Part shown: positions 25,496 through 52,841 of the stretch, piece after piece
How the letters are laid out: each line of letters starts with the position of its first letter
Position numbering within the stretch: position 1 is the stretch's first letter
Assembly (NCBI GenBank): GCA_002350525.1
Contig: DEFA01000013.1
Coordinates: 9,995 to 73,994, forward strand
From: Lachnospiraceae bacterium UBA2864
GTDB taxonomy: Bacteria > Bacillota > Clostridia > Lachnospirales > Lachnospiraceae
Direction of reading: 5' to 3'
Length of the DNA stretch: 64,000 nt
The notes under the pieces: generated by a model
The model's database searches: none
What the model was told of the DNA's origin: nothing
Seen by the model: the letters and a program-made list of their open reading frames with translations, nothing else
Program-made: the position numbers and the translations under genes

Positions 25496-25496
25496 A

Positions 25497-25802: not shown

Positions 25803-25839
25803 CGCACAAAAAGCTGCCCGATTGATTCGGACAGCTTCC
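25803..25839 (-). terminator. riboswitch expression-platform terminator
   Basis: Minus strand reads ggaagctgtccgaatcaatcgggcagctt followed by tttgtgcg. It lies between the TPP aptamer and thiS. Confidence 0.8.
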
Positions 25840-25857
25840 ATGACGTTTCAAATATGA

Positions 25858-25945
25858 TTCATCCCTACGTTGGCATTATCCAAATCAGGTTAACGGGTCG
25901 AAGGTCGAACCTTCCTCTCAGCCGATTTATCGGCTCCCCTCTTTA
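25858..25945 (-). promoter_or_regulatory. TPP (THI-box) riboswitch aptamer
   Basis: Minus strand reads ..GGGGAGCcgataaatcgGCTGAGAgg...cgttAACCTGATttGGATAATGCCaacgtAGGGA. This matches the conserved THI-box cores (GGGG.GC, CTGAGA, ACCTGAT.TGGATAATGCCA, AGGGA). Confidence 0.92.
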
Positions 25946-26150
25946 ATTGCGGCTCTAATTGTAGTCTTTTATTCGGAGTTAGTCAATGGGGAAATACCAT
26001 GGACTCTATTTTCTATTATCGCGACAAAACATCAACTGTTCACGACATTTTCTATGTAATCTGTATTTTCTATGGTAATATATACGATGAAAAGAGCAAC
26101 CGCTCTGGAACAGTTTATCTACAATTGGAAAAGAAACGGAGGATTTGAAA

Positions 26151-38718: not shown

Positions 38719-39619
38719 AGAGTTAGATATAATGTTAAAAAAATCTCTGCAAACTTCATATTTACCGAACGATGACGTTAACATATCATTGATGGACAAA
38801 ATCAGAAGCTTAGACGAGGGTAAAGGTAAAAGTGATAGCGAAGGAAGGTCCAACGAGATAGTTTCGGTGATAAGAAATGCAAGAAAGCCAATATCCTGGA
38901 TAGTAAAGGCGGCAATATTCTTCCTTGTATTTTCCGCACTGGGAACCGGTGGGGTTCTGGCAGCGAATTACCTCTTGAAGCAGTCTGAAGTATACGAGCA
39001 TGGAGTTTCGGTAGGGGGAAACGTAAATGATGAGGATCTTGCTGAACCGTGGGAAGATGTACCGGAAGAAAGCCTCGGAACCGAAGAAGGTAAAGGGGGA
39101 GATCTTTGGTATTCCAAGGAAGTGATCCTAACAGACGGAACGTACCAGAATTCATTATATAGCTACAGAACATATGAGGAGGGTACAAAGGATTCGGGAT
39201 TTCCTAATATCTTCAGTGAACCTATAGGTACACCACAGAGTATAACTTATGTTGTTACAGAAGTTACGTCAGACGGAAAGGTAGCCGGCGAGGCAATTGA
39301 TAAAACACTGGATTCGATATTTGACTATAAGGGACATAGAGTATACCTTTCTCAGGATGTAATGCCGGGCGCTTCGGCAGATTCCGGCTATAGTGTATGT
39401 ATGAATAAGACTGCTAATACCAGAAGTTATACTTCATCTCAGGGCATTGTATTTACACTGGTGGATGACATCGAGGCAGATGTGGATAACTGGACAAGAA
39501 AAGGCACAAGAACCTATGTCATGCTTTCTTACGGTAATTACAGAGGCTTTATATATTTTGAAGAGATGGACGATAATGATATCCATGATATATTGGATAA
39601 AATCGTATTAGGAGAGTAA
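38708..39619 (+). CDS. putative anti-sigma factor / membrane-anchored protein
   Basis: Overlaps the sigma gene by 11 nt. Short cytoplasmic N-terminus, single TM helix (AAIFFLVFSALGTGGVLAANYLL), roughly 210-aa extracytoplasmic domain. Confidence 0.6.
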   Translation: MTDKELDIMLKKSLQTSYLPNDDVNISLMDKIRSLDEGKGKSDSEGRSNEIVSVIRNARKPISWIVKAAIFFLVFSALGTGGVLAANYLLKQSEVYEHGVSVGGNVNDEDLAEPWEDVPEESLGTEEGKGGDLWYSKEVILTDGTYQNSLYSYRTYEEGTKDSGFPNIFSEPIGTPQSITYVVTEVTSDGKVAGEAIDKTLDSIFDYKGHRVYLSQDVMPGASADSGYSVCMNKTANTRSYTSSQGIVFTLVDDIEADVDNWTRKGTRTYVMLSYGNYRGFIYFEEMDDNDIHDILDKIVLGE

Positions 39620-39623
39620 TAAA

Positions 39624-40850
39624 ATGGTAAAGAATATAAAGGGATTTTTGAAAAAAGCATCTGTACCCGTAATGACGGGGATGATGCTCCTGGGTTTTGC
39701 CGGTTGCGGCAGTGGTAAGGCGAGAGAAGATGTAACGGAAATGGTTAAAGAAGCTGATAATGTTACGGAAGATGTGGAAGAAAAGGTTAAAAGTGAAGAA
39801 GCGTCTTCAATCACCGAAGCAGCTGACAAATCGGCAGTAAGGACGGAGGCTGTAACGGAAGAAACCGAAAAAACTTCGGATGATACGGAGGCAACAACAG
39901 AAGCCGTACAGGTATCGGAAGACGGGGAGACTCATATTACAGACGAAGCAGGCGGAGCATATAGCAGAGTTGTTTTCAGCGGTGATCCGGAGGAGCTTGT
40001 GAAGTTTGACAAGCATACTTACTATGAAGGCGATGATTTCTTTATATTCTTCCAGAAGGATACGGAAGTTCCGGGAGATACAGCACTTTTTGTGGACGGA
40101 ATCATGGCAGAGCTTGAAGAGGTAGAACATATGAAGTATTCCGACGGAGAAGATGACGGAGACAGCTTCTGGAGAGATTATCATTTTGACGGTCAGTTTC
40201 AGGGAATCAACGAGGACTGCGATAAGATCAATATCTTTGTGCTGAACGATCCGGAGAACGGTAATATAGAGTGCGCCACGGTAAATGAATGCCTGCTCTA
40301 TGATGATGACTTTACGGAAACAGGAGACAGCGGATCGGAAGGAACCGTATACCACGAGCTGGCACATGTACTGCGACTGAGACAGAGCCCGAATCTGGGG
40401 TCTGTTATGGAGGAAGGCGTTGCATTATACTCGGAATATGAACTTATGAAGAAGCATGGTTACAAAGATTACTCCATGATACAGTATGTGGATGATTATA
40501 ATAACGAAAAGCTTCTTGAAAAGGGAATCCTGGAGAAACCGGAGAGAGCTTACTGGGATATATCCAAGGAAGACTATGATATCGAGCAGCTTAATTACCA
40601 GTATGGTTTCAGATTCGTCTGCTTTTTATATGATGAATATGGTGACGATGTCATAAAGAATATAGGTGAAGTGGCAAGTAAGACAAAGTATGATGCTTAT
40701 CAGACGGACCCTTCGATTCTGATAGAGATAATAAAGAAGGGTACATCAGAGGATGTATATGAGAGATTCGGAAAGTGGCTTCCGGAAAACTGGCCGGCAA
40801 AAAGCGCTGAGTGTATGGAATATCTCGGAATAAACAACTCGATAGAGTAA
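39624..40850 (+). CDS. lipoprotein with HExxH zinc-metallopeptidase-like motif
   Basis: Lipobox MMLLGFAGCGSGK, acidic Thr/Glu-rich linker, VYHELAHVLRL motif. Confidence 0.6.
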   Translation: MVKNIKGFLKKASVPVMTGMMLLGFAGCGSGKAREDVTEMVKEADNVTEDVEEKVKSEEASSITEAADKSAVRTEAVTEETEKTSDDTEATTEAVQVSEDGETHITDEAGGAYSRVVFSGDPEELVKFDKHTYYEGDDFFIFFQKDTEVPGDTALFVDGIMAELEEVEHMKYSDGEDDGDSFWRDYHFDGQFQGINEDCDKINIFVLNDPENGNIECATVNECLLYDDDFTETGDSGSEGTVYHELAHVLRLRQSPNLGSVMEEGVALYSEYELMKKHGYKDYSMIQYVDDYNNEKLLEKGILEKPERAYWDISKEDYDIEQLNYQYGFRFVCFLYDEYGDDVIKNIGEVASKTKYDAYQTDPSILIEIIKKGTSEDVYERFGKWLPENWPAKSAECMEYLGINNSIE

Positions 40851-40860: not shown

Positions 40861-40897
40861 AAAGCTGTTATGGATATGATTCCATAGCAGCTTTTTT
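40861..40897 (+). terminator. rho-independent terminator
   Basis: aaagctgttatgga / tccatagcagcttt stem followed by a T-run. Confidence 0.85.
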
Positions 40898-40922: not shown

Positions 40923-40951
40923 TTGCAAGTATATTGAAATGGTGTTACAAT
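40923..40951 (+). promoter_or_regulatory. sigma-A type promoter (extended -10)
   Basis: TTGCAA (40923-40928), 17-nt spacer, TGt-TACAAT (-10 at 40946-40951). Confidence 0.7.
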
Positions 40952-41066
40952 GACCTTCCAAAGAAAAATATTAGACCAACCTGATATTGAAACTCGAAAG
41001 AAGATTTCGGCTTGAGATAGAAGCATGTGGGAATGGACGTGGGCTCTAAGTCTACGCTGTTACTCG

Positions 41067-41097
41067 CACTCTTCGTATGCCGAAGGGTGTTTTTTTT
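41067..41097 (+). terminator. leader (attenuator) terminator upstream of the nitrogenase-like operon
   Basis: cactcttcg / cgaagggtg 9-bp stem, tatgc loop, then 8 T. It sits about 110 nt after the predicted TSS and 33 nt before the first ATG of the operon. Confidence 0.75.
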
Positions 41098-41129
41098 AGC
41101 CTTAGGCTAAAATGCAAAGGAGTTTATAT

Positions 41130-41876
41130 ATGATAAAGTTTGCAATATATGGAAAAGGCGGAATAGGTAAATCGACATTATCCTCAAATCTTTCTGCGGC
41201 TCTTGCGGCAAGAGGACTTACGGTCATGCAGATAGGCTGTGACCCCAAAGCGGATTCCACAACACTTCTGAGACCTAAGGAAGAAATGTCGACAGTGCTG
41301 GATCTTGTAAGAAGCAAGAAGCCGTTCACACTGGAAGATATGGTTAAGGAAAGCTCTGCCGGGGTTTACTGCGTTGAGGCCGGTGGACCGATACCGGGAC
41401 TCGGATGTGCAGGAAGAGGTATCATAAATGCTTTGGAATCTCTTGAAGCAAAGGGAGCTTACGAGAAGTATAATCCGGACGTTGTAATATATGATGTTCT
41501 CGGTGACGTTGTCTGCGGAGGCTTCACTATGCCTATGCGTAAGGGCTATGCGGATAAAGTATATATAGTTACTTCAGGAGAGAAGATGTCCATATATGCT
41601 GCGGCAAACATTGCCATGGCTGTGGAGAATTTTAAGAAGCGTGACTATGCAAGGCTTGGAGGGATAATCCTTAATTGTCGCGGTGTGGAAGATGAAGAGA
41701 AGAGAGCCCGCGAACTGGCTTCGGATTTTAATACGGAAGTTATCACGGTAGTACCGCGTGACAGTATATTTGAAAAGGCGGAAGCAGAGGGGAAAACCGT
41801 TGTAGAACTCTTCCCTGACAGTGAAGTGACAAAGATACTTCTGGCTGCCGCAGATAAGATAATGGAAGCAGAATAA
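41130..41876 (+). CDS. NifH/BchL/CfbC-family ATPase (nitrogenase iron protein-like) copy 1
   Basis: P-loop [10 protein letters not shown], switch I CDPKADST, both [4Fe-4S] ligands (GLGCAGRG and GDVVCGGF). AAAGGAG RBS lies 7 nt upstream. Confidence 0.9.
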
Positions 41877-41906
41877 TAAAAGCATAGTAATGTTTGAGGA
41901 TCGGAT

Positions 41907-43295
41907 ATGATTAAAGCACTTCAGACAACTGAACAGAGAATACCGGAACCGGTACTGCTGAAGGATATAGATTTTAATGCGCCTTTTTACGAAGGACTGC
42001 AGTATAATGCACCGGCCAGAGGTGTATGGAATATCGTTCATACGGGCATGCTGATCCCGGAAACACATCAGGTTTATGTCTGTGCTCAGGGGTGTCTGAG
42101 AGGTGTTATTCTTACAGCTGCCGAGATGAATGAGACCACCCGTATGTCGTGGGTTGCTCTCCGTGAAGAGGATATGTGGAACGGAGAGATGGAGAAACGT
42201 GTTATAGAAGGCACGGCTCACATCGTGGATAAGATGGAGAAAAAGCCGAGATGTATCCTTATATATCTCAGCTGTATGCATATGTTTGAAGGTTGTGACT
42301 TCATGATGATAACGGATGAGCTGCATGAGATGTATCCGGATATTGATTTTGTGGAGTGCTACATGATTCCGACTATGAGAAAGACCATGTCGCCGGATGC
42401 CATGATGAAGATAAGTCTCTATGAAGCTGTAGAAAAGTTGGAGAAGGACGAGAGTCTGGTCGGAATCATCGGATCTAATCTGCCGAATGCGAAAGATTCG
42501 GATCTGGTATCCCTTATAGAATTGTCATCCCATAAGGTATGGGATATAACGGATTGCAGGTCCTATGACGAGTATCTCCGTCTGGGAGCGGCAGGGCGGA
42601 TAGTATCATATCTTAATGTTACCGATGCTGCTGCAAAACAGCTTAAGGAAAGACTCGGGTGTGAGTGGAGCAAGGTGCCTCTTCGATTTGATGAGACGAA
42701 GCTCGATGAGAGTCTTATTTCTTTCGGAGAAGCTCTGGGACTTACCCGGGATACGGTAGAAAAGTGGATCGCGGAGCGTAAGGCAGAAGCTTATGCGGCA
42801 CTTGATGAAGCCTCAGGTATTATAGGCGATACCGAGATTGCTATAGATTATACGGCATTTCCTTATATACTCGAATTTGCGGAATTATTACTGAAGCACG
42901 GCTTCAATGTAAAGAGGATTTATTCGGATAATTTCCCGGCAGATGAAAGAGATGCGTACGAGAGGATCATATCCCGAGAGACGGATCCGGAAGTGAGGGA
43001 ACAAGTATCTTCCGAAGAAAATGCCGGATATATAAAGCTTTATCCGACCAACGAGCCGGCCATGAGATTTGCGGCTTCGGAGAATTCCTCCGACAGCAGG
43101 ATTCTTGCCATCGGGCAGAAAGCGGCTTATTTTACGGGAACACAGCATTTCGTTGATATAGTCGAAGGCGGCGGAATGTTTGGATATGATGCAGTGAAGA
43201 AGATAGCCGGACTTATGACGGAAGCCTATCGGGAGAAAAAGGATACAAAGAAGATCATCAGTCACAAGGGATGGGGGTGCGACAGCTGCCTATGA
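41907..43295 (+). CDS. nitrogenase component 1-type (NifD/NifE/BchN-like) subunit, copy 1
   Basis: 462 aa. Cys-containing motifs VCAQGC and LIYLSCMHMFEGCDF sit at positions expected for the HGxxGC and xTCxxExIGDD cluster motifs of the Oxidored_nitro family. Follows the NifH-like gene. Assignment made by eye. Confidence 0.65.
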   Translation: MIKALQTTEQRIPEPVLLKDIDFNAPFYEGLQYNAPARGVWNIVHTGMLIPETHQVYVCAQGCLRGVILTAAEMNETTRMSWVALREEDMWNGEMEKRVIEGTAHIVDKMEKKPRCILIYLSCMHMFEGCDFMMITDELHEMYPDIDFVECYMIPTMRKTMSPDAMMKISLYEAVEKLEKDESLVGIIGSNLPNAKDSDLVSLIELSSHKVWDITDCRSYDEYLRLGAAGRIVSYLNVTDAAAKQLKERLGCEWSKVPLRFDETKLDESLISFGEALGLTRDTVEKWIAERKAEAYAALDEASGIIGDTEIAIDYTAFPYILEFAELLLKHGFNVKRIYSDNFPADERDAYERIISRETDPEVREQVSSEENAGYIKLYPTNEPAMRFAASENSSDSRILAIGQKAAYFTGTQHFVDIVEGGGMFGYDAVKKIAGLMTEAYREKKDTKKIISHKGWGCDSCL

Positions 43296-44491
43296 ATCAG
43301 ACTGCAAGAATAATATCAATATATGTAGCGGATACTTCGGGCGTCTGCTCGGCACTGTATGAGTTCGGTGGCATGACAGTCATACATGATGCATCGGGCT
43401 GTAATTCCACTTATACGACGCATGATGAGCCGAGATGGTATGACATGGACAGCATGATGTATATATCCGGTCTCACGGAGAATGATGCTGTAATGGGTAA
43501 CGACGATAAGTTTATAGATGACCTTGTAACTGCGGCAGAGGAGCTTCGTCCCGAATATATCGCCATATGTGCGTCACCTATGCCGGCCATGATCGGTATC
43601 GATATGGATGCCATAGCTTATGAAGTGGAGAATCAGACGGGAATTCCTGCCTTTTACGTAAAGACCAACGGCATGCAGAGTTATATAACGGGAGCCGGTA
43701 ATGCTTTCCTTAAGCTGTCCGAGAGATTTACGGGAACTTTAGATGAGTTGAAGGATTCTGCGACAGATATAGATAATGCGGCATCCGGTACCAGAGTTAA
43801 CATCCTCGGAATGACACCGCTTGACTTTCCTCTGGGAACAGATAAGGAAATCCGGAAATGGCTTGTGAAGAACGGATTTGAGGTGAACTCATGCATCGGC
43901 ATGGGAACTTCTCTGGATGAAGTTAGAAGACTCAACAGAGCGGATGTAAGTATAGTTGTATCTTCAGCGGGACGGCCGCTGGCCGAGAGCCTGAAGCAGA
44001 GATACGGGATTCCTTATATTGTCGGTGTTCCGTACGGGAAATGCTTCGCTGCATTTCTGGCTGAAGAACTGAGGACTGCAGCAGGTAAGAAGGGGACGCC
44101 GGGTGAAGTCGTTACTAATGTTGCGGGAAAATACAGAAGCTTTGACAGCAGGATCGCAGTGTTCGGAGAGAGTGTTCTTGCAACTTCACTTGCGGCTGCA
44201 ATATCCGTATGTACGGGGCAGGGAACGAGAGTTCTTGAAACCGTAGGAGACGGAGATATGTCCCAGCTTTCAGAGTCGGACATTTCCTGTGATGATGAAG
44301 AGCGCCTGGAAGAGGAACTTAAAGCTTCGGAGATAGTGATAGCAGATCCTCTGTTCCGCCCGATATGCGGTGACGGAGAATTCATCAGACTTCCGCATGA
44401 TGCTTTCTCGGGAAGATGTTATAAGTCGGAAGAGATAAATATGATAGATACGGATGTTCCGTTCTTTAATAGATTGAAGGAGTTTGGATAA
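43292..44491 (+). CDS. nitrogenase component 1-type (NifK/NifN/BchB-like) subunit, copy 1
   Basis: [22 protein letters not shown] and [17 protein letters not shown] match the C..GA...G....HG..GC / TC...IGDD pattern of the family. ATGA overlap with the upstream gene; the alternative ATG at 43271 is less likely. Confidence 0.65.
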
Positions 44492-45258
44492 TGATAAAGG
44501 TAGCCATATACGGTAAGGGCGGAATAGGTAAATCGACCGTTACGTCGAACCTTTCTGCGGCACTTGCTTCACTTGGTAAGAGAGTAATTCAGATCGGGTG
44601 TGATCCCAAGGCAGATTCGACAGCGAATCTTCTCTCGGGTAATCCCGTGATGCCGGTAATGAACTATATGCGTGAGCATGACGAGGAACCGACATCTCTG
44701 GATCAGATAACAAGAGAAGGTTTCGGAGGAGTTCTCTGTATAGAGACAGGAGGACCGACACCGGGACTGGGCTGCGCCGGAAGAGGGATCATAACCACAT
44801 TTTCACTTCTGGAAGAGCTGGAGCTTTTTAAGAAGTATAAGCCGGATGCGGTACTGTATGACGTACTCGGAGATGTTGTCTGCGGCGGCTTTGCGGCTCC
44901 CATAAGAGAAGGATATGCGGAAAAGGTTCTGATAGTTACCTCGGGTGAGAAGATGGCTCTTTATGCGGCGGATAATATCAACAGTGCGGTGAACAACTTT
45001 CAGGACAGAAGCTATGCAAAGGTAAGAGGCATCGTTATGAATCGCCGTGCGGTAGAGGGCGAGGAAGAGAAGGTACGTGCTTTTGCGGAGAGGACCGGAC
45101 TTCCTATAGTTGCGGATATTCCGAGAACCAATGATATCATTCACTATGAAGATATGGGTAAGACCGTGATCGAAGGTGATCCGACACTTGAAGTAAGTAA
45201 GAGATTCCTTGATCTGGCAAGACTGCTTATAGAAGAAGATGAAAAGGATAACAGGTAA
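44491..45258 (+). CDS. NifH/BchL/CfbC-family ATPase (nitrogenase iron protein-like) copy 2
   Basis: [39 protein letters not shown] overlap with the upstream gene. GAAGGAG RBS. Confidence 0.9.
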
Positions 45259-46539
45259 ATGAGCGAAGCTTTTTTTAAAACTGCAAAAGAACTGGCGGAG
45301 ACGGGACTTGCCGGACTTCCGGCAGAACTGAAGAGTTCCGAGCATCTGATATACAGCTCGCCGGCGACACTGTCCTTTAATTCTCCGGGAGCGAAGGGGT
45401 TCGGTGTAAAGCGTGCGGGCCTTGCCGTGCCGGATTCGGTTATGCTGCTTGTCTCACCGGGATGCTGCGGCAGGAATACATCACTCTTCCGCTCAGCACC
45501 TGAATACAGAGACCGTTTCTTCTTCCAGCTTCTGGATGATACCGATATCGTAACGGGAAGACATCTAACCAAGATTCCGCAGGCAGCTGAGGAAATGCTC
45601 TCGGTTCTGAGGAAGAAGCCTTCTGCGATCATGATATGTATCACCTGTGTCGATGCGCTTCTCGGAACGGATATGGAGCGTGTATGCAGACGTGTAACGG
45701 AGAAGACGGGAATTCCGGCGGTGGCCTGCTACATGTATGCTCTGACAAGAGAGAAGAGACTTCCGCCTATGGCGGCGGTAAGAACTTCTGTTTATTCGCT
45801 TCTTGAAAAACAGGAAAAACGTAATTCTGCCGATATGAATATACTCGGATATTTCACACCTCTCTTTGACAGTTCGGAGCTATATACTCTGATGAAGTCG
45901 ATAGGTATTAAGAATATCCGTGAGCTTTCAAGATGTAACAATATTGAAGAGTATCATGAGCTCTCAAAGGCTAATTTCAGTCTTGTTCTGAATCCGGAAG
46001 CGAGAGCTGCGGCGCAGGATATGGAGCAGAGACTGGGCATTCCATTTATAGAGCTGCTCAGACTCTATAGAATAGATAAGATCAGAAATCAGTACAGACT
46101 TCTGGGACAGGCTCTCGGAGCAGAGCTTGACGACACGGAGTTTTATGAGACTGCAAGAAAAACAGTGGATGATTTCAGAGACAGATACGGAAAACTGGAG
46201 TTTGCGGTCGGCGAGATACAGAACGGAGATCCTATCGAGATGGCGCTTATGCTTATTGAAGAGGGATTTGCCGTTAAAGAAATCTTCGCAACCATCGGTG
46301 AACTGAATTTCCGCTTCCTGAAGAAACTTGCGGAGCTGAGTCCGGAGACAAAGATATATTCGAATCTTTCACCGACCATGCTTCATTATAAGGAAGAAAA
46401 GGTGGATGTATATATCGGAGCAGACTGCGAATATTATCATCCCGGGACTCCGGGAATCGACTGGTGTGATGATTCACAGCCGTTCGGTTATGACGGAGTT
46501 ATAAAACTGTTTGAGAGATTAGCGGATAAGCTATCATAA
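45259..46539 (+). CDS. nitrogenase component 1-type (D/E/N-like) subunit, copy 2
   Basis: 426 aa. VSPGCCGRN and IMICITCVDALLGTDM are paralogous to copy-1 motifs. ATG immediately follows the upstream TAA. Confidence 0.6.
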   Translation: MSEAFFKTAKELAETGLAGLPAELKSSEHLIYSSPATLSFNSPGAKGFGVKRAGLAVPDSVMLLVSPGCCGRNTSLFRSAPEYRDRFFFQLLDDTDIVTGRHLTKIPQAAEEMLSVLRKKPSAIMICITCVDALLGTDMERVCRRVTEKTGIPAVACYMYALTREKRLPPMAAVRTSVYSLLEKQEKRNSADMNILGYFTPLFDSSELYTLMKSIGIKNIRELSRCNNIEEYHELSKANFSLVLNPEARAAAQDMEQRLGIPFIELLRLYRIDKIRNQYRLLGQALGAELDDTEFYETARKTVDDFRDRYGKLEFAVGEIQNGDPIEMALMLIEEGFAVKEIFATIGELNFRFLKKLAELSPETKIYSNLSPTMLHYKEEKVDVYIGADCEYYHPGTPGIDWCDDSQPFGYDGVIKLFERLADKLS

Positions 46540-46553
46540 TATCGGAGTGTTCT

Positions 46554-47651
46554 ATGAAAAAACTACTTAAGTATCTATCACCCTTTGCACCCGATCAGTC
46601 GGGAGCCTGTGGGGTATTATATGAACTCGGCGGACTTATAGTTATCTGCGATGCAGGCGGCTGCGCCGGAAATATATGCGGCTTTGACGAACCGAGATGG
46701 TTCACCAAAAGAAGTGCGGTATTCAGTGCGGGACTTCGTGATATGGATGCCATAATGGGGCGTGACGATAAGCTTATCGCAAAGCTTGCTGATGCCCAGA
46801 AGAGCCTCAACTGCAATTTTACCGCTATTGTCGCAACGCCGGTTCCTGCTGTTATCGCAACAGACATGAAAGCTCTGAAACGTATGGCAGAGAAAAAAAC
46901 CGGAGTTCCTTGTATAACCGTAAATGCGATCGGAACCAGATATTACGATGAAGGCGAGAGTGAGGCCTGGGTACAGTTGTTCCGAGAATTTGCCGGAACA
47001 AATGCTGAGGACGAAATTCCATCAGAGTCTGCAGAGGCAGATACTGTCGGTGTTATAGGAGCCACGCCTCTTGAAACAGGATATTCCTCGGCTGCACCGC
47101 TTAAGGAAGGACTCCGCCGTTATGGAGTAGAGGATTCTGTTATATACGGTGTGGGAACAGATCTTGATGCAGTAAGAGCGGCAGGAAGTGTTAAGAAGAA
47201 TCTGGTGGTAAGTGCGGCAGGAATAAGAGCGGCTGAGTATCTGAAGGAGAAGTTCGGAACACCGTATGAAGTGGGTTATCCGTTTATTCCCGAAAGCGTC
47301 AGCTCGGAAGTTAAGGCGGCTGTCGAAGCAGACTCACTCGGAAAAACTCTTATCATCGGCTCGCAGTTCGCATCAAATGAATTAAGAGATTTCATAGGAG
47401 ACGGAAGCAAAGTAAACTGTGCTACCTTCTTTATGTCAGATAATAATTATGCAGCTGAGGGAGATATAAGACTCTCGGGCGAAGATGAACTCGCGGAACT
47501 GGTCGAAGAGGGAAAGTACAATACCATTATCGCAGATGATGATATTAAGCGTCTTCTGGATGCGGTGGGATATGAAGGCAGATTTATCTCCTTCCCGCAT
47601 TTCGCTATATCGGGAAGACCGCTGGATGACGGAAAGACACTTTATAATTAA
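46554..47651 (+). CDS. nitrogenase component 1-type (K/N/B-like) subunit, copy 2
   Basis: SGACGVLYELGGLIVICDAGGC, FDEPRWF and MGRDDKLI parallel copy 1 ([32 protein letters not shown]). Confidence 0.65.
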   Translation: MKKLLKYLSPFAPDQSGACGVLYELGGLIVICDAGGCAGNICGFDEPRWFTKRSAVFSAGLRDMDAIMGRDDKLIAKLADAQKSLNCNFTAIVATPVPAVIATDMKALKRMAEKKTGVPCITVNAIGTRYYDEGESEAWVQLFREFAGTNAEDEIPSESAEADTVGVIGATPLETGYSSAAPLKEGLRRYGVEDSVIYGVGTDLDAVRAAGSVKKNLVVSAAGIRAAEYLKEKFGTPYEVGYPFIPESVSSEVKAAVEADSLGKTLIIGSQFASNELRDFIGDGSKVNCATFFMSDNNYAAEGDIRLSGEDELAELVEEGKYNTIIADDDIKRLLDAVGYEGRFISFPHFAISGRPLDDGKTLYN

Positions 47652-47677
47652 AGTGACAGAGGATATATCAAGGGGAG

Positions 47678-50116
47678 GTGAGGACAACGCTCACATATAA
47701 TATAAGAGTTTACGGAATTGTTCAGGGCGTTGGCTTCAGACCTTTCGTAAGCAGGACATGTAAGGATAACAGAATAACGGGAACAGTTGCCAATAAGGGC
47801 TCCTATGTTGAAATATTCGCACAGGGAGACAGTGTCGGAAATCTCTTCGATGCATTAAAGCATACTCCGCCGGACAGAGCGGTAATACTTAATACCATCA
47901 CTCATGAATGTGATATGCCGGCCTTTGATTCCTTTGAAATAATTGAGAGTGAGAAGGATTCCGGAGATATATTCGTATCACCGGATATTGCAATCTGCGA
48001 GGATTGTAAGAAGGAACTCTTCGATCCGACCAACCGAAGATATATGCATCCCTTTATCAATTGTACAAACTGCGGACCGAGACTTACGATCCTTGACTCA
48101 ATGCCTTATGACAGAGAACGTACCAGCATGAAGGAATTCGATATGTGTCCGGAATGCGAATATGAATATACACATCCCGAGACGCGTCGATATGACGCTC
48201 AGCCCGTGTGCTGTCCGAACTGCGGCCCGAGCGTATATCTGATAGAGACGGGAATCGGAAATGAAGTAAATGGCAGCAACACAGGAAATATCACAGCTCG
48301 CGGAAGAGATGCGATAAGTGCAGCGAGAAAAGCTCTCGCGGACGGAAAGATTGTTGCGGTAAAGGGAATCGGCGGATTTCATCTCGCATGCGATGCAAAG
48401 AATGAAAACGCCGTTGCAAGACTGAGAGAGTTGAAGCATAGGCCGATGAAGCCTTTTGCAGTTATGATGAAGGATATGGACACAGTCCTCAGGGAGTGCA
48501 GCCTGGGGGATGAGCTGTTTGAAAAAAATCTTTCCGGAGAAAAGAAATCTGCAGAAAGCGGGCAGTCGGAAGAAGGAATTCGCGAACTTCTGACCGGATA
48601 TCAGAAGCCGATAGTATTACTTGAGAAAAAATCGGAAGCCGGAAGTGATTCGGGTACGGTACTCGCAGAGTCGGTTGCACCGGATAACCCATATGTCGGA
48701 GTTATGCTTCCTTATACACCGCTTCACATGCTGCTATTTAACTATGATGATGAATATGAAGTATCGGATTGTCTCGTTATGACAAGTGCAAATGCATCGG
48801 GAGCGCCTATCTGCAGGACCGATGAGGATGCGCTGAACGAGATAGCGGGCTTTACGGACTATATACTTTCCAACGACCGTATGATAAGGACCAGAGCAGA
48901 TGATTCGGTTACTGACTTCTATAAAGGACGCCCTTATATGATAAGAAGGTCGAGAGGATTCGCACCGCTTCCTGTTATGATAAGTGACAGACAGGATGAG
49001 GTCGGTGCACTTAAAGGATGCGTCCTTGCCGTGGGAGGCGAGCTGAAGAATACATTTGCGATAGCGAAGGATTCACTCATATATCCGTCTGCATATGTGG
49101 GCGATATGGAGGATATAAGAACCGTAAATGCGCTTGAAGAATCGATCAAAAGAATGCAGTCGCTTCTGGAAGCCGAGCCGTCGCTGGTTGTATGTGACAT
49201 GCATCCGAAGTATAATACTACTGCGGCAGCCGAGTCACTCGGTCTGACTGTTATGAAGATACAGCATCATTATGCGCACATACTTTCCTGTATGGCGGAG
49301 AACGACTACCTGGATGAGGTGATAGGAGTATCCTTCGACGGAACGGGTTACGGAACCGACGGAACGATCTGGGGAGGAGAATTTCTCAGATGTGATGTAT
49401 CGGGATTTGAGAGACTCGGTTCTATCACACCGTTTATCCAGTGCGGAGGAGATCTTTCATCGAAGGAAGGCTGGAGGATTGCGGCTTCTCTGCTCGGAGA
49501 TTTTGCCGGGGGTGAAAATGGCCTCGGTAAAGATGTCATATGTGACGAGCTGAAACTGTGTTCACCTATGGAGTTCTCGCTTCTCGAAAATATGGCACGG
49601 ACGGGAATAAACAGTATAACCTCTACAAGTGCGGGAAGACTGTTTGATGCTGTAAGTGCGATACTCGGAATCAGAAGAAGCTCGACCTTTGAAGGCGAAG
49701 CTTCGACTGCGCTGATGTTTGAGGCAGAGAGATATCTGAAGAAGAATATGGATAAGATAAGCTTCGGAGCGGCCGAAGGACTTGATATATCGAAGGATTT
49801 TACGAGCGGTCTTGCAAGAGATATAGCGGCGAGAGTTCTTAGCGGTGAGGATAGAGGAAGTCTGGCCTATAGATTCCATTCGGATCTTGCAGGATATATT
49901 ATAGAAAGCTGTAGGATTTACTCCGAGGAATCGGGAATCAGAACCGTAGCTCTGAGCGGAGGTGTATTTCAGAATAAGCTGCTTCTCGGTCTGGTCGATG
50001 AAGGACTGAAGAAAGAGGGATTTAAGGTTCTCAGACACAGTCTGATACCGCCGAATGACGGAGGAATCTGTGTGGGACAGGCGCTTGCCGGAATGGCAGC
50101 TATATCAGGAAGATAA
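47678..50116 (+). CDS. hypF: carbamoyltransferase HypF
   Basis: Acylphosphatase domain (VYGIVQGVGFRPF), two Zn-finger pairs (CEDCKKEL..INCTNCGPR; CPECEYEY..VCCPNCGP), YrdC-like (VAVKGIGGFHLACDA) and Kae1-like C-terminal domains. The GTG start at 47678 is poorly spaced from AGGGGAG, so the start is uncertain. Confidence 0.92.
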   Translation: MRTTLTYNIRVYGIVQGVGFRPFVSRTCKDNRITGTVANKGSYVEIFAQGDSVGNLFDALKHTPPDRAVILNTITHECDMPAFDSFEIIESEKDSGDIFVSPDIAICEDCKKELFDPTNRRYMHPFINCTNCGPRLTILDSMPYDRERTSMKEFDMCPECEYEYTHPETRRYDAQPVCCPNCGPSVYLIETGIGNEVNGSNTGNITARGRDAISAARKALADGKIVAVKGIGGFHLACDAKNENAVARLRELKHRPMKPFAVMMKDMDTVLRECSLGDELFEKNLSGEKKSAESGQSEEGIRELLTGYQKPIVLLEKKSEAGSDSGTVLAESVAPDNPYVGVMLPYTPLHMLLFNYDDEYEVSDCLVMTSANASGAPICRTDEDALNEIAGFTDYILSNDRMIRTRADDSVTDFYKGRPYMIRRSRGFAPLPVMISDRQDEVGALKGCVLAVGGELKNTFAIAKDSLIYPSAYVGDMEDIRTVNALEESIKRMQSLLEAEPSLVVCDMHPKYNTTAAAESLGLTVMKIQHHYAHILSCMAENDYLDEVIGVSFDGTGYGTDGTIWGGEFLRCDVSGFERLGSITPFIQCGGDLSSKEGWRIAASLLGDFAGGENGLGKDVICDELKLCSPMEFSLLENMARTGINSITSTSAGRLFDAVSAILGIRRSSTFEGEASTALMFEAERYLKKNMDKISFGAAEGLDISKDFTSGLARDIAARVLSGEDRGSLAYRFHSDLAGYIIESCRIYSEESGIRTVALSGGVFQNKLLLGLVDEGLKKEGFKVLRHSLIPPNDGGICVGQALAGMAAISGR

Positions 50117-50179
50117 CGAGCCGGACATTTCCGGATAATAAAGTAGAATAATATAAGTATAGATACGGAGGAAACAAAA

Positions 50180-50392
50180 ATGTGTGTAGGACTTGCGGCT
50201 AAGGTGGTAAGTGTTAAGGATGGTACGGCAGTGATCGATGCCAGCGGGGCAAAGAGAGATGTCAGTGCCGAGCTCCTCGAAGATCTTGAACCGGGCGATT
50301 ATGTCATGGTCCATGCAGGTGTTGCGATTGCGAAGATCACAAGCGACGATGCTGAAGAAACATCAACTATCATGAATAAACACGCGAGATAA
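50180..50392 (+). CDS. hypC: hydrogenase maturation chaperone HypC/HupF family
   Basis: N-terminal MCVGLAAKV with the essential Cys2. 70 aa. GGAGGA RBS. Confidence 0.9.
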   Translation: MCVGLAAKVVSVKDGTAVIDASGAKRDVSAELLEDLEPGDYVMVHAGVAIAKITSDDAEETSTIMNKHAR

Positions 50393-50435
50393 GTGCGTGA
50401 ATAAAGATAAGTGTGTGAATAAGAGAGGAACAGTA

Positions 50436-51494
50436 ATGAGTGAGATAATAGATAATGCCAGAGAGATAATCTCCGGATATAAGGGGAAGAAGCTTCGTAT
50501 CATGGAGGTCTGCGGAACTCATACTCATGAGATCTTCAGACTCGGAATCAGGAGCCTCCTGCCGCCGGATATAGATCTTATATCGGGACCGGGATGTCCT
50601 GTCTGCGTAACACCCGTAGGCTTTATAGATGAGGCGATATACCTTGCACTTGAGAAGAACTGTACCATATGCACCTTCGGAGACCTCATCAAGGTTCCGG
50701 GAACAAAGCAGAATCTTGCGGGAGCAAGAGCGGACGGAGCCGATGTTCGTCCTGTATATTCACCTGACGATGCGGTCGAGTTGGCAAAGGAGAATCCGGA
50801 GCTTCAGGTGGTATTCCTTGCGGTAGGTTTTGAGACCACAACTCCTTCAGCATGTCTTGCCGTGAAGAAGGCAGAGCGTCTTGGACTTAAGAATTTCTCG
50901 ATCCTTACAGCCAACAAAACTATGCCGAATGCATACCAGAAGCTTAAGGGAAGTGCTGACGCCTTCCTCTATCCGGGACACGTAAATGCCATTACCGGCA
51001 ACGCAACCTGTGAGAAGTTGAAGGAAGAGGGAGTATCCGGTGTTGTAGCGGGATTTACCGCAAATGAGCTTATGACGGCCCTTGCAGTAACAATAGATAA
51101 TCTTGAGAAGGGTGAGCCTTTCTTCGAGAATTGCTATCCGAGAGTCGTTAAGCCGGAAGGTAATCCTGCGGCACAGAAGATTATGAATGAGGTTATGGAA
51201 CTCTGCGATACAGAGTGGAGAGGCCTCGGTGTAATAGAAATGTCAGGCATGAAGCTCCGCGCGGAATATGCGGACTTCGATGCAAGAATAAAGCACAGCA
51301 TTCCGGAGATTAAGGGTAAGCCGAATCCGGCATGCCGCTGCGGAGAGGTTCTCCAGGGTATGTGCAAGCCGTCAGACTGTCCGATGTTCGGCAAAGTCTG
51401 TACACCGCTTCATGCAGTGGGTGCATGCATGGTATCCGACGAGGGAGCCTGTGCGGCTTATTATACATACGGTCAGTCCGTAGGATTAAAGTAA
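50436..51494 (+). CDS. hypD: hydrogenase formation protein HypD
   Basis: Motifs MEVCGTHTHEI, GPGCPVCVTP, GFETTTP, YPGHVNAI and the C-terminal Cys cluster CRCGEV..CKPSDCPMFGKVC. Confidence 0.93.
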   Translation: MSEIIDNAREIISGYKGKKLRIMEVCGTHTHEIFRLGIRSLLPPDIDLISGPGCPVCVTPVGFIDEAIYLALEKNCTICTFGDLIKVPGTKQNLAGARADGADVRPVYSPDDAVELAKENPELQVVFLAVGFETTTPSACLAVKKAERLGLKNFSILTANKTMPNAYQKLKGSADAFLYPGHVNAITGNATCEKLKEEGVSGVVAGFTANELMTALAVTIDNLEKGEPFFENCYPRVVKPEGNPAAQKIMNEVMELCDTEWRGLGVIEMSGMKLRAEYADFDARIKHSIPEIKGKPNPACRCGEVLQGMCKPSDCPMFGKVCTPLHAVGACMVSDEGACAAYYTYGQSVGLK

Positions 51495-51530
51495 GCAGAG
51501 CATTTAAAAATCATAAAGAAGGAAAAACAG

Positions 51531-52535
51531 ATGGAAGATAAGATTACACTTGCACACGGCTCCGGAGGAGTCCAGACAAATGAACTGATAGGAAGTATAT
51601 TTAAGAAGCATTTTGCAAATCCGTATCTTACGGCAGATGATGCGGCTGTTCTCGATATGACACCGGGAAAGATAGCTATGTCAACAGACGGATTTATAGT
51701 ATCACCTTACGAGTTCCCGGGCGGAAATATCGGAAAGCTTTCCATATGCGGAACCGTAAATGATGTGGCCTGCATGGGCGCAAAGCCGGAATATCTCACC
51801 TGCTCTTTCGTTATAGAAGAGGGCTTCCCGGTTGATAAACTGGAGGAGATAGCCGCTGCTATGGGGAAGACCGCAAGAGAAGCAGGAGTGAATCTCGTTG
51901 CAGGAGATACCAAGGTAGCAGGTAAGGGCCAGGTGGATAAGATATTCATCACAACAACCGGAATCGGACATATCATAGAAGGAGCGGCTACATCGGGTGC
52001 TTTTGCGAAGCCGGGAGACAAGATAATCGTAACCGGAGATATAGGACGCCACGGATGTACTATTCTTCTTGCGAGAAATGATTTTAAAATCGATGCGGAT
52101 ATAACAAGTGACTGCGCACCTCTCGCTAAGAATGTGGAGGCGGTACTTGAAGCAACCAAGGACGTACATGTTATCAGAGATGCCACAAGAGGAGGCGTAG
52201 GTACGGTTCTTTATGAGATTGCTGCGGAAAGTAATGTTGGAATCTCTCTTGATTCCGAGAAAATCCCGGTTCAGGACGGTGTAAGGGGAGTCTGCTCTAT
52301 GCTCGGACTTGAGCCTCTGTATCTTGCCTGCGAAGGAAGACTCGTGATCTTTGCTCCGGCATCCGAAGCGGATAAGATCCTCGATGCGCTTCATGCATGT
52401 CCGAATTCAGAGGGAGCAGCCGTTATCGGTGAAGTAACTGAAGAAAATCAGGGAAAGGTTATTCTTAATACAGCGGTAGGTGCGAAGACATTTCTCGCTC
52501 GTCCGAGTGGAGAGCTTCTGCCGAGAATCTGTTAA
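51531..52535 (+). CDS. hypE: hydrogenase expression/formation protein HypE
   Basis: PurM-like fold (ITLAHGSGG.., GDTKVA) and the diagnostic C-terminal PRIC*. Confidence 0.93.
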   Translation: MEDKITLAHGSGGVQTNELIGSIFKKHFANPYLTADDAAVLDMTPGKIAMSTDGFIVSPYEFPGGNIGKLSICGTVNDVACMGAKPEYLTCSFVIEEGFPVDKLEEIAAAMGKTAREAGVNLVAGDTKVAGKGQVDKIFITTTGIGHIIEGAATSGAFAKPGDKIIVTGDIGRHGCTILLARNDFKIDADITSDCAPLAKNVEAVLEATKDVHVIRDATRGGVGTVLYEIAAESNVGISLDSEKIPVQDGVRGVCSMLGLEPLYLACEGRLVIFAPASEADKILDALHACPNSEGAAVIGEVTEENQGKVILNTAVGAKTFLARPSGELLPRIC

Positions 52536-52568: not shown

Positions 52569-52841
52569 TCACTCGGAACTGCTTCCGTCTATATGACCGC
52601 TGATAAGATCTTTGGGATCGATGTTAAGTGCGTCGGAAATGTTATACAGAATTTCAAGTGAAAAAGACTGAACAAGATTCGGAGCTTCGATAGAACTTAA
52701 AAAGGAACGGCTTATGCCGGCTTTTTCAGCAAGCTCTTCCTGGGTGAGACCTTTCATTCGCCTGAGAAGACCTATATTGAGACCGAGCTTTAAAAGTCGG
52801 TCACGATTGTCGAATGAATCTGTGTTCTTCATGTGAAACAT
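52569..52841 (-). CDS. XRE family HTH transcriptional regulator (small)
   Basis: LLRRMKGLTQEELAEKAGISRSFLSSIEAPN helix-turn-helix signature. 90 aa. Confidence 0.8.
   Translation of the reverse strand: MFHMKNTDSFDNRDRLLKLGLNIGLLRRMKGLTQEELAEKAGISRSFLSSIEAPNLVQSFSLEILYNISDALNIDPKDLISGHIDGSSSE

Follow-up and report, generated by a model that had tools for sequence, protein, structure and literature searches.

What do hydrogenase-type maturases serve when they are encoded directly behind two sets of nitrogenase-like genes? In the window (the whole stretch of 64,000 nucleotides that was analysed), positions 41130-52535 of the plus strand carry ten genes in the order H1-D1-K1-H2-D2-K2-hypF-C-D-E. 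Pfam and NCBIfam scans confirmed all ten, and with them the two H-D-K triads followed by hypF-C-D-E that a first-pass annotation had described. The genes fall into two modules, M1 and M2:

41130-41876, plus strand: H1, NifH-like ATPase and [4Fe-4S] reductase, M1 (PF00142, 293.7 bits)
41907-43295, plus strand: D1, very divergent NifD/E-like subunit, M1 (PF00148, only 56 bits)
43292-44491, plus strand: K1, NifK/N-like subunit, M1 (PF00148, 116.9 bits)
44491-45258, plus strand: H2, second NifH-like reductase, M2 (PF00142, 294.9 bits)
45259-46539, plus strand: D2, highly conserved NifD/E-like subunit, M2 (PF00148, 111 bits)
46554-47651, plus strand: K2, NifK/N-like subunit, M2 (PF00148, 74 bits)
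47678-50116, plus strand: hypF, carbamoyltransferase, GTG start (TIGR00143, 715.9 bits, cutoff 466)
50180-50392, plus strand: hypC, chaperone with N-terminal Cys2, MCVG (PF01455, 82.8 bits; TIGR00074, 62.5 bits, cutoff 48)
50397-51494, plus strand: hypD (TIGR00075, 403.9 bits, cutoff 193)
51531-52535, plus strand: hypE, last gene of the block, C-terminus PRIC (TIGR02124, 427.2 bits, cutoff 252)

Junctions within the block overlap or are very short, and re-reading bore out the ATGA overlap at 43292 (the start of K1), the TAATG overlap at 44491, the TAA abutting ATG at 45259, and the gaps of 14 nt before K2 and 26 nt before hypF that had been claimed. The H1 start at 41130 was likewise upheld, being Met7 of the longest ORF and invariant in 65 orthologues. 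The start codon of hypD is uncertain, with an ATG at about 50436 being possible. In agreement with the earlier reading, no convincing intrinsic terminator was found within 41130-52535, where a few weak hairpins are without T-tracts. Genes for [NiFe]-hydrogenase subunits, a maturation endopeptidase, hypA, hypB, nifB and nifV, all listed as absent by the first-pass annotation, were not found in the window by Pfam and NCBIfam scans of plausible ORFs of at least 150 aa, with small ORFs outside annotated genes read by eye.

The hyp genes look intact, as had been stated, and their products, like the Hyd proteins described below, all score above the NCBIfam equivalog cutoffs. HypF has five out of five Pfam domains plus four CxxC motifs, HypD has CGTH, GPGCPVC, GFETT and the C-terminal Cys cluster, and the HypC and HypE motifs are present. 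H1 and H2 (52% identity) both keep the P-loop, switch I and the two cluster cysteines, again as claimed. H1 has four invariant Cys and stays below the NCBIfam cutoffs for nifH (310 bits vs 394) and CfbC (308 bits vs 402), while H2 is 73-98% identical across loci. D1 had no match among NCBIfam or PDB sequences. In its AlphaFold model (pLDDT 84.9) D1 adopts the nitrogenase component-1 fold, at equal distance from each of NifEN, NifDK, VnfDK, AnfDK, BchNB and Mar; its N-terminal loop and residues H45, C59, C63, C123, H125, C151, C217, C458 and C461 are invariant, and its C-terminal tail reads GCxSCL. The top matches of K1 are NifE in both NCBIfam (71 bits vs a cutoff of 505) and PDB (2.8e-9), and its conserved residues are C26, H39, C44 and H51. 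D2 matched nitrogenase alpha chain and NifE profiles best in PDB (about 1e-13 to 1e-12) and conserves H29, C69, C70, H102, C127, C130, C143, C157 and C226 in at least 96% of 46 orthologues, while K2, which is 33% identical to K1, has invariant C32, C37 and C42. D1 and D2 align with an hhalign probability of 100%, and the two triads are ancient paralogues, as are NifEN and NifDK. Both D proteins have inter-subunit cluster-type cysteines only, lacking FeMo-co-type ligands and any obvious equivalents of known cofactor ligands. By profile, PDB and model comparisons, the D and K proteins belong to none of the characterised nitrogenase-like families; clustering within one of these had been named as evidence against a new system.

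The first inventory had overlooked a bona fide hydF and hydE just upstream, as well as a strong hairpin with T8 at 41066-41098, directly 5' of H1, which is part of a conserved leader RNA:

35700-36935, plus strand: hydF, [FeFe]-hydrogenase-type maturation GTPase/scaffold (TIGR03918, 560.7 bits, cutoff 325)
36988-38049, plus strand: hydE, radical SAM maturase (TIGR03956, 570.1 bits, cutoff 255)
38203-40850, plus strand: lineage-specific insertion of three ORFs between hydE and the leader RNA (Pfam, NCBIfam)
38203-38718, plus strand: ECF sigma factor, within the insertion
38708-39619, plus strand: possible anti-sigma factor, within the insertion
39624-40850, plus strand: unknown protein, within the insertion
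40923-40951, plus strand: promoter-like site, TTGCAA-17-TACAAT with upstream TG (consensus scan only)
40970-41098, plus strand: leader RNA, elongated hairpin with invariant internal loops, then an intrinsic terminator (41066-41090 plus T8)

HydF has its dimerisation and tetramerisation domains (Pfam). In related loci hydF adjoins H1D1K1 in 25/80 and 12/41 cases, and hydE does so in 45/80 and 20/41, some of them loci without M2; both genes are accessory members of M1, which consists of H1-D1K1, usually with a TM1266-like gene and the leader RNA. The links to hydE, hydF, the TM1266-like gene and the leader RNA, also missed at first, are conserved as strongly as the hyp link and connect the system with maturation of both the [FeFe] and the [NiFe] type.

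Relatives of D1 were found in 470 of 185,579 reference species genomes from two phyla and form 393 clusters (50% identity, E <= 1e-30). The carriers include Lachnospiraceae, Ruminococcus, Clostridium aromativorans, Anaerostipes and Lentisphaeria/Victivallales, and the gene block is one carried by rumen and gut bacteria. The adjacency of nitrogenase-like and hyp genes held throughout: hypF comes next after K2 in all 93 loci with room to judge (42/42 from genomes and 51/51 from metagenomes), in Bacillota and Lentisphaerota, and the hyp linkage persists at D1 identities as low as 34-44%. Because the ten-gene set recurs in 72 independent complete loci, its arrangement is far beyond chance, and hypFCDE and the nitrogenase-like genes share a functional link that has been conserved. 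The window order is found in 55 of these loci, while 17 are permuted as H2D2K2-hypFCDE-TM1266-H1D1K1; M2 (H2-D2K2 plus hypFCDE) therefore behaves as one unit, and was never found split among the loci surveyed. Conservation is much higher in D2 and H2 than in D1 and K1. M1 also occurs without M2, in what I call type-B loci, where H1D1K1 is embedded in a siderophore/haem/corrinoid-type ABC importer (FecCD/Peripla_BP_2) whose ATPase carries a TM1266-like domain, and where Hyp genes are wholly missing. The statement that no such system has been described holds for function, as a literature search found no functional study of the block, but not for the adjacency itself: in Coprococcus catus, Dorea longicatena and other Firmicutes, Dos Santos et al. 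2012 (PMC3464626) noted two linked NifHEN-like copies beside genes for hydrogenase maturation, and in one sentence they suggested a role in metallocluster assembly.

ORF clustering of the related loci showed hydrogenase subunits, hypA, hypB, an endopeptidase and hydG in no neighbourhood; for hydG this means none in 165 neighbourhoods and none in the window. Table S2 of Greening et al. 2019, consulted for three cultured relatives and based on that study's screening thresholds, lists no [NiFe]-hydrogenase for the carriers AC2031, NE2001 and G41, and for AC2031 no hydrogenase of any class. The AC2031 cluster nonetheless carries hydE, hydF and hypFCDE. [FeFe]-hydrogenases are present in NE2001, G41 and Dorea longicatena, and in NCBIfam the TM1266 family is annotated as a putative regulator of iron-only hydrogenase systems. 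That the block occurs even in bacteria for which no [NiFe]-hydrogenase is listed suggests a metal cofactor or an enzyme that has yet to be described.

The best explanation, to which I give a probability of about one half, is a self-contained two-module system in which hydrogenase-type maturases serve the nitrogenase-like proteins and not a hydrogenase; the client, the direction of transfer and the chemistry are all read from co-localisation. In established Hyp chemistry, HypF and HypE make a cyanide donor out of carbamoyl phosphate, and HypC and HypD assemble an Fe(CN)2(CO)-type unit. Here that unit would pass to D2K2, the presumed client because neither Ni-insertion genes nor a [NiFe] large subunit are available; within D2K2, the D2 subunit is the candidate to receive or scaffold the iron unit. 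D2K2 would act as a NifEN-like scaffold, served by H2 in the role of an ATP-dependent reductase or insertase. M1 would come last, as user or finishing stage: an ATP-driven enzyme of two components, with the product held by D1, a subunit that has a flexible C-terminal CxxC tail and an invariant N-terminal loop. The Hyp proteins would thus serve a scaffold-plus-enzyme arrangement as in NifEN/NifDK, and HydE and HydF probably serve the nitrogenase-like proteins too, a view in line with the one-sentence suggestion of Dos Santos et al. 2012. Between the two mechanisms first proposed, the module analysis favours a scaffold/enzyme pair with CN/CO-ligated iron, while a DPOR-then-COR-style sequence fits less well because H1D1K1 also occurs alone with an importer. 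The presence of the importer around M1 where M2 is missing suggests that making and importing a metal complex are alternatives. If D1K1 needs the M2 product, type-B organisms must import an unusual organometallic species, for which I know of no precedent; alternatively, the importer may do no more than bring in iron or a substrate. The lack in D1 and D2 of obvious equivalents of known cofactor ligands, and the insertion and terminator that in the window part hydF and hydE from H1, also count against the two-module reading.

The close linkage of H1D1K1 to hydE, hydF and a TM1266-family gene, together with [FeFe]-hydrogenases in NE2001, G41 and Dorea longicatena (a carrier per Dos Santos et al. 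2012), would also suit a HydG-independent or auxiliary H-cluster route, in which HypFCDE and the nitrogenase-like proteins deliver an Fe-CO/CN synthon through HydE/HydF to a HydA encoded elsewhere. AC2031 has the full cluster although the published screen gave it no [FeFe]-hydrogenase, many related loci have no hydE or hydF nearby, and type-B loci have no Hyp genes, all of which make this route unlikely. The synthon normally comes from HydG, and the lack of hydG in the window and in every one of the 165 neighbourhoods speaks for the route, though weakly, since in Clostridia this gene is often encoded away from hydE and hydF. That a conventional [NiFe]-hydrogenase elsewhere employs the hyp genes, their adjacency being an accident of descent or transfer, is the least probable reading and is disfavoured, even though the scores mark the Hyp proteins as canonical and the coverage of this genome ends with the 64 kb of the window. 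The first-pass annotation had regarded such a hydrogenase, combined with unconserved adjacency, as decisive against its proposal; what was found is a linkage that outlasts D1 divergence, two phyla and module permutation, no hypA or hypB in the window or any neighbourhood, and a published table with no [NiFe]-hydrogenase for three out of three cultured carriers.

Slightly less likely than the H-cluster route is that both triads simply reduce substrates at the expense of ATP, as Mar, CfbCD, DPOR and COR do, in two sequential steps that act on a small molecule or metal chelate, either imported or endogenous, with hyp co-located only for shared regulation or contributing a side reaction, such as one that supplies a cyano or carbamoyl group. 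To my knowledge all characterised group IV nitrogenase-like enzymes are substrate reductases, the type-B importer suits an imported substrate, and the cysteine inventory of D1 and D2 agrees with such a role. However, the K2-hypF adjacency, kept in all 93 loci with room to judge, across two phyla and through the module permutation, is much tighter than shared regulation requires, I know of no role for HypC and HypD besides Fe(CN)2(CO) assembly, and ORF clustering showed no conserved biosynthetic genes for a candidate organic substrate. Improbable, too, is that H2-D2K2 is an anaerobic CO source, an ATP-driven CO2-to-CO reductase feeding HypCD, with Fe(CN)2(CO) going to D1K1 or another protein. 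Where the CO comes from in anaerobic Hyp-dependent maturation is not settled, reduction of CO2 to CO is an activity of both nitrogenase Fe proteins and V-nitrogenase, and M2 is a rigid Hyp-linked block; canonical anaerobic [NiFe] systems, as far as I know, do without such genes. This reading overlaps with the two-module system and differs solely in the role of D2K2.

Expression of the cluster would be gated by the conserved, terminator-containing leader RNA, a candidate attenuator or riboswitch. It had no match in Rfam. The covariance model R1 scored the window copy at 99.9 bits and found copies in about 45 related loci, on the plus strand and always just 5' of hydF, hydE, H1, D1 or transporter genes. 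In the covariation test 93% of cells were paired, compared with 67% in shuffles and 37-53% in slid controls. Copies lie 3' of the TM1266-like gene wherever that gene is present, and this small protein, encoded just 5' of the RNA in most relatives, is by its position probably involved in regulation. The sigma-factor insertion probably lies outside the system; its three proteins had no tblastn match in any of 165 related loci. In the window, the 2.6-kb insertion and a terminator stand between hydF/hydE and H1, and the promoter-like site follows the terminator hairpin of the upstream gene (40862-40897) and precedes the leader RNA. At the other end of the block, 3' of hypE, lies a convergent XRE-type gene (52569-52841, minus strand).

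The tandem arrangement of two nitrogenase-like triads ahead of hypF, hypC, hypD and hypE, which the first-pass annotation had described, was confirmed. The genes concerned and the elements upstream of them are as follows, H, D and K standing for NifH-like, NifD/E-like and NifK/N-like proteins:

35700-36935, + strand: hydF (NCBIfam 560.7 bits, cutoff 325.6)
36988-38049, + strand: hydE (NCBIfam 570.1 bits, cutoff 254.6)
38203-40850, + strand: insertion with an ECF sigma factor, a possible anti-sigma factor and a 408-aa protein without family match
40923-40951, + strand: promoter-like site ahead of the leader
40970-41098, + strand: conserved leader RNA of ~130 nt, ending in a strong hairpin and T8
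41130-41876, + strand: H1 (PF00142, 293.7 bits, cutoff 25)
41907-43295, + strand: D1 (PF00148, 56 bits), the most divergent of the six triad proteins
43292-44491, + strand: K1 (PF00148)
44491-45258, + strand: H2 (PF00142, 294.9 bits, cutoff 25)
45259-46539, + strand: D2 (PF00148)
46554-47651, + strand: K2 (PF00148)
downstream of K2 within the block 41130-52535, + strand: hypF, hypC, hypD and hypE (NCBIfam equivalogs)

The gene junctions were as first reported, with an ATGA overlap at 43292, a TAATG overlap at 44491, a TAA abutting an ATG at 45259, and gaps of 14 nt and 26 nt, and all motifs claimed for the H and Hyp proteins were present on direct reading. HypF (715.9 bits against an NCBIfam cutoff of 466), HypC (62.5 against 48), HypD (403.9 against 193) and HypE (427.2 against 252) passed their equivalog cutoffs and carried the catalytic motifs, and thus belong to these families. 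The earlier reading had also seen no terminator inside the block, and no convincing intrinsic one was found between 41130 and 52535; the 3' limit is set by a convergent XRE-type gene (52569-52841). The gene absences that it listed held as well: no hydrogenase subunit, hypA, hypB, endopeptidase, nifB or nifV turned up in the window when plausible ORFs of at least 150 aa were scanned with Pfam or NCBIfam and small ORFs outside annotated genes were read.

H1 and H2 are 52% identical, K1 and K2 33%, and D1 and D2 24%, the latter two pairs with a profile-profile probability of 100%, and on sequence grounds the two triads are ancient paralogues. Across loci, the conservation of D2 and H2 far exceeded that of D1 and K1. 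Both H proteins are members of PF00142 with P-loop, switch regions and VCGGF, and four Cys were invariant in 65 orthologues of H1 and in 43 of H2; their scores stayed below the cutoffs of TIGR01287 (nifH; H1 310 and H2 303 bits against 394) and NF033200 (CfbC; 308 and 289 against 402). The D and K proteins scored 19-71 bits against the NCBIfam models for NifD, NifK, NifE, NifEN, VnfD, BchB, BchZ and CfbD, whose cutoffs are 268-1229. NifDK, VnfDK and AnfDK gave 19-53 bits against cutoffs of 427-823, and NifE, the best NCBIfam match of K1, D2 and K2, nevertheless reached only 54-71 bits against 505, which falls short of NifEN. For DPOR and COR the values were 27-63 bits against 490 (BchB) and 27.6 against 529 (BchZ), and for CfbD 25.4 bits against 268 (TIGR03282), CfbD being a single catalytic subunit whereas D and K are separate genes here. 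D1 itself had no NCBIfam match and no PDB sequence match, and PDB sequence and profile searches returned remote matches only (best profile 1e-13 for D2 and 6e-6 for D1). MarDK (9fmg, 9d9u), compared through individual structures and sequences rather than a Mar-specific HMM, was also distant (sequence E 8e-7 to 5e-3; Foldseek TM 0.55-0.63, 12-14% identity), with a Foldseek similarity to D1 no better than that of Nif or DPOR. The AlphaFold model of D1 (pLDDT 84.9) had a component-1 fold equidistant from NifEN, NifDK, VnfDK, AnfDK, BchNB and Mar (TM 0.54-0.64, 11-17% identity). Placement of the D/K proteins in a known family was consequently rejected on the NCBIfam scores, the PDB searches and the Foldseek comparison of the D1 model, and they fall within no characterised family tested.

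The full P-cluster ligand set of three Cys in D and three in K was not present in D1, D2 and K1: the recognisable cluster Cys of D1 and D2 are of the alphaC62 and alphaC154 types only, and K1 has one or two conserved Cys. The D1 and D2 alignments showed no equivalents of the cofactor ligands alphaCys275 and alphaHis442; aligned with VnfD, D1 has no Cys at the Cys position and reads 'GGMYGFDG' where the His lies in 'GPYHGFDG', and aligned with NifE, D2 reads 'lvlnpea' at the Cys position. This pattern agrees with the description of a Coprococcus/Dorea clade by Dos Santos et al. 2012 (PMC3464626). An invariant N-terminal loop of D1, NAPARGVWNIVHTGML, and a C-terminal GCxSCL tail lie in low-confidence regions of the AlphaFold model and are presumably flexible. 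A D1 profile search of 1.84 billion representatives yielded 393 clusters at E <= 1e-30, and the D1-family representatives included several long proteins (P0129, 850 aa; P0167, 888 aa; P0183, 1010 aa; P0197, 873 aa; P0166, 729 aa). Those of about double length are probably D1-K1 fusions, while one long protein, matched to D1 over residues 278-727, is possibly a fusion of H1 and D1.

Scanning one genome per species, D1 relatives were found in 470 of 185,579 genomes. Cultured carriers comprise the Lachnospiraceae strains AC2031, NE2001 and G41, Clostridium aromativorans, Hominimerdicola aceti and an Anaerostipes sp., and MAGs with D1 were assigned to Ruminococcus, Mogibacterium and Anaerovoracaceae and, in a second phylum, to Lentisphaeria/Victivallales. 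The reverse search of metagenome contigs, anchored on D2, gave 531 stretches or more, with the human gut as the source of many. The proteins of the window were then mapped onto all loci fetched from both searches. K2 was followed directly by hypF wherever there was room to judge (42/42 genome loci and 51/51 metagenome loci). Complete ten-gene sets numbered 72, with the order of the window in 55 and the permuted order H2D2K2-hypFCDE-TM1266-H1D1K1 in 17, and D1K1 stood without a second triad or hyp genes in 12 of 58 loci with room. The constant K2-hypF adjacency, the permutation that keeps both parts intact, and the occurrence of D1K1 by itself set H2-D2K2-hypFCDE (module M2) apart from H1-D1K1 (module M1), and each module behaves as a single unit.

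Around M1, a TM1266-family gene adjoined in 64 of 80 D1-anchored and 37 of 41 D2-anchored loci, hydE in 45/80 and 20/41, and hydF in 25/80 and 12/41; all-against-all ORF clustering of both locus sets revealed no further conserved partners. Hydrogenase subunits, hypA, hypB, an endopeptidase, nifB and nifX were not found in the 165 related neighbourhoods. In many relatives hydF and hydE lie directly 5' of H1. In the window the two genes, which are bona fide by NCBIfam and had gone unmentioned in the first-pass annotation, are kept apart from H1 by the ~2.6-kb insertion at 38203-40850, which had no match in any of the 165 related loci. A TM1266-like gene was not found in the window by tblastn, and hydG was found neither there nor in any neighbourhood of the related loci. 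The permuted loci are human-gut metagenome contigs (L129-L165, e.g. L133 at 9222-20949) that have no hydE or hydF nearby and a D1 only 34-39% identical to that of the window. In the AC2031 locus, a TIGR02452-family gene (Pfam microbial PARG-like catalytic domain) sits between hypF and hypC (L001, 18212-19027).

In the 12 loci with M1 alone (type B, as opposed to type A with both modules), H1D1K1 is surrounded by a FecCD/Peripla_BP_2-type ABC importer with a TM1266-like domain fused to the C-terminus of its ATPase; among named transporters, the importer is closest to those for corrinoids, haem and siderophores. An example is L067 (6611-13820), and similar loci are L055, L059-L061, L063, L064, L068, L072, L074, L075, L080, L081, L084 and L085; some type-B loci also contain hydE or hydF.

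Carbamoyl phosphate is turned into a cyanide donor by HypF and HypE, and the Fe(CN)2(CO) unit is assembled by HypC and HypD. In the mechanism favoured here, the client of the Hyp proteins would be D2K2 and not a hydrogenase, with D2K2 acting as a NifEN-like scaffold and H2 as its ATP-dependent partner. H1-D1K1 would be the terminal enzyme or the last assembly stage, assisted by HydE and HydF where these are present, and in type-B organisms the importer would take the place of M2. The replacement of M2 by an importer suggests two alternative routes, 'make' and 'import', by which the same metal species or a precursor is supplied. I put the chance that the Hyp machinery serves nitrogenase-like proteins at roughly 0.5, and hold the direction of transfer and the salvage idea with less confidence than this core claim. 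The picture as a whole is tentative, with the odds against it: that gut and rumen anaerobes make a CN/CO-iron cofactor via Hyp and Hyd and house it in a NifH-like-driven nitrogenase-fold protein, that some, in place of making it, take up the complex or a precursor with a dedicated ABC importer, and that a new leader RNA and a TM1266-family protein form the control system.

By analogy, this mechanism would borrow the logic of building on one paralogue and using in the other from NifEN/NifDK. As in NifH/NifEN/NifDK, two paralogous D/K-type heterotetramer gene pairs stand in tandem, each with a NifH-type ATPase, D1 has the same fold (TM 0.58-0.64 to NifEN/NifDK), and equivalents of the inter-subunit cluster ligands of the alphaCys62 and alphaCys154 types are retained in D1 and D2. 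Unlike in that system, the FeMo-co ligands are missing from D1 and D2 (the alphaCys275 and alphaHis442 positions being neither Cys nor His), the window is without nifB, nifV and nifX, and Hyp and Hyd maturases are the partners instead of NifB. Mar (MarBHDK), CfbCD, DPOR (BchLNB) and COR (BchXYZ) are likewise ATP-dependent two-component systems of a NifH-like reductase and PF00148 subunits, but the D/K similarity to them is remote, and D1 is structurally no closer to them than to Nif. These four systems are not known to have Hyp or Hyd partners. That the triads are ordinary substrate reductases of this kind, with the hyp genes merely co-located, is unlikely, and that H2D2K2 is a CO2-to-CO source for HypCD is more doubtful still.

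Two further explanations keep a hydrogenase as the client, and both can be set against a published screen (Greening et al. 2019; PMC6776011, Table S2), in which the genomes of rumen isolates were searched for catalytic subunits of every hydrogenase class. At the thresholds of that study, the three cultured relatives with the full cluster are listed as follows: AC2031 (locus L001/L018) has no [NiFe], [FeFe] or [Fe] enzyme, NE2001 has [FeFe] group A3 and no [NiFe] or [Fe], and G41 has [FeFe] groups A3 and B and no [NiFe] or [Fe]. The hyp set of the block resembles that of [NiFe] maturation in that hypF, hypC, hypD and hypE are complete and canonical with all catalytic motifs, but the maturation system is not complete, as hypA, hypB, the endopeptidase and the hydrogenase subunits, the large one included, are absent from the window and the 165 neighbourhoods, and the client inferred here is a nitrogenase-fold protein. 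With a [NiFe]-hydrogenase listed for 0/3 cultured carriers (PMC6776011), the census argues directly against hyp genes that serve such an enzyme encoded elsewhere, which makes a distant [NiFe] client very improbable; the coupling of hyp genes and triads proposed in the first-pass annotation withstood this check, made through relatives. HydE/HydF/HydG maturation of [FeFe]-hydrogenases is resembled insofar as H1D1K1 has bona fide hydE and hydF and a TM1266-family gene at its flanks in many loci; it differs in that hydG and hydA are not linked to the cluster and that the window does not have the TM1266-like gene. A HydG-independent route to the H-cluster would fit the linkage of hydE, hydF and TM1266. 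Against this route stands AC2031, which is without HydA in the published screen (PMC6776011), although its cluster comprises hydF and hydE as well as the TM1266-like gene, hypFCDE and both triads. I regard this route as unlikely too, though it is the least unlikely of the four alternatives to Hyp proteins that serve D2K2.

No characterised system is known in which a nitrogenase-like enzyme is coupled to CN/CO-ligand biosynthesis; the case made here for such a coupling is a genomic one. HypCDEF and HydE/HydF are regarded as dedicated to hydrogenases. If they served nitrogenase-like proteins in organisms without a [NiFe]-hydrogenase, one of which has no hydrogenase of any class in the published screen, biological Fe-CN/CO chemistry would have another client, a further class of CN/CO-iron enzymes would stand alongside the [NiFe]- and [FeFe]-hydrogenases, the nitrogenase superfamily would gain a new functional class, and open questions, the anaerobic origin of the CO ligand among them, would become easier to approach. 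As several cultured strains exist, the hypothesis is directly testable.

The interpretation given in the first-pass annotation, of a nitrogenase-like scaffold or reductase pair tied to Hyp chemistry, was supported in part, and its remark that it knew of no described system with this gene combination calls for a qualification. In Coprococcus catus, Dorea longicatena and other Firmicutes, Dos Santos et al. 2012 (PMC3464626) had already noted a linked pair of NifHEN-like copies in association with hydrogenase maturation proteins, and had suggested a role in metallocluster assembly. The adjacency of triads and hyp genes is accordingly not a first sighting. A full-text literature search, with most subscription journals outside its reach, gave nothing beyond that study (PMC3464626) on nitrogenase-like proteins combined with Hyp or Hyd maturation; new as far as found are the strictness of the association, the two-module anatomy, the type-B importer variant, the HydE/HydF/TM1266 linkage, the leader RNA, and the absence of [NiFe]-hydrogenases from cultured carriers. 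As the carriers are fermenters that are common in gut and rumen (among them Ruminococcus, Lachnospiraceae, Victivallales, and Dorea longicatena and Coprococcus catus per PMC3464626), the reaction may be of importance for hydrogen, carbon or metal metabolism in the gut. The 'NifH' column of PMC6776011 Table S2 reads 0 for AC2031, NE2001 and G41, despite two NifH-like genes in each, while a Dorea genome is credited with two NifH matches in Welsh et al. (bioRxiv 10.1101/2024.08.15.608110); gut metagenome surveys of 'nitrogenase' may thus be inconsistent in whether they count or miss such genes.

The leader RNA is a separate lead, since whatever ligand or protein it pairs with would show what the system senses. 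The order 5' of H1 is promoter-like site, leader, ribosome-binding site and the ATG at 41130. The leader consists of an elongated hairpin with invariant internal loops, followed by an intrinsic terminator, and its nearly invariant blocks ACCAACCUGAUAUUGAAAC and GCUUGAGAUAGAAGCAUGUGG flank a variable stem with many compensatory changes. A covariance model found copies on the + strand in about 45 loci of both type A and type B, always with the next cluster gene on the 3' side and the TM1266-like gene, in loci that have one, on the 5' side, for instance in L001 (6582-6754), L004 (8965-9071), L006 (1006-1133) and L067 (6897-7040). In two close relatives with an H1-D1 spacing of about 1.5 kb, the leader lies between these two genes (L007, 8580-8706; L010, 9642-9768). 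Paired cells made up 93% in the covariation test, where shuffles gave 67% and slid controls 37-53%; the alignment was fitted to the model and hence favours the structure. No Rfam family matched the leader region at gathering thresholds, and at E <= 10 there was nothing but noise. In three permuted human-gut loci and one Lentisphaeria-type locus the leader model gave no match in an unfiltered search; there the model may be too narrow, or the cluster may be regulated differently. The leader may be a riboswitch or a protein-dependent attenuator. For TM1266-family proteins the fold is ACT/NikR-C-like (PDB 2nzc; NikR E 0.82), and the succession of a small regulator gene, a terminator-containing leader and an operon is like that of hutP-type antitermination, although a sequence relationship to HutP is lacking.

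Elsewhere in the window, a radical SAM gene at 22719-23972 was considered as hydG and rejected, scoring 514 bits as ThiH and 182 bits as HydG (cutoff 312). It lies in a thiamine operon (22046-25950, - strand; thiF-like, thiS, thiG, thiH and thiE) under a TPP riboswitch (25845-25950, 62.6 bits). The region 15679-22053, apparently unrelated to the triad/hyp block, encodes two large c-di-GMP signalling proteins, namely a GGDEF protein with a periplasmic-binding domain on the - strand and a 1105-aa EAL-GGDEF protein on the + strand.
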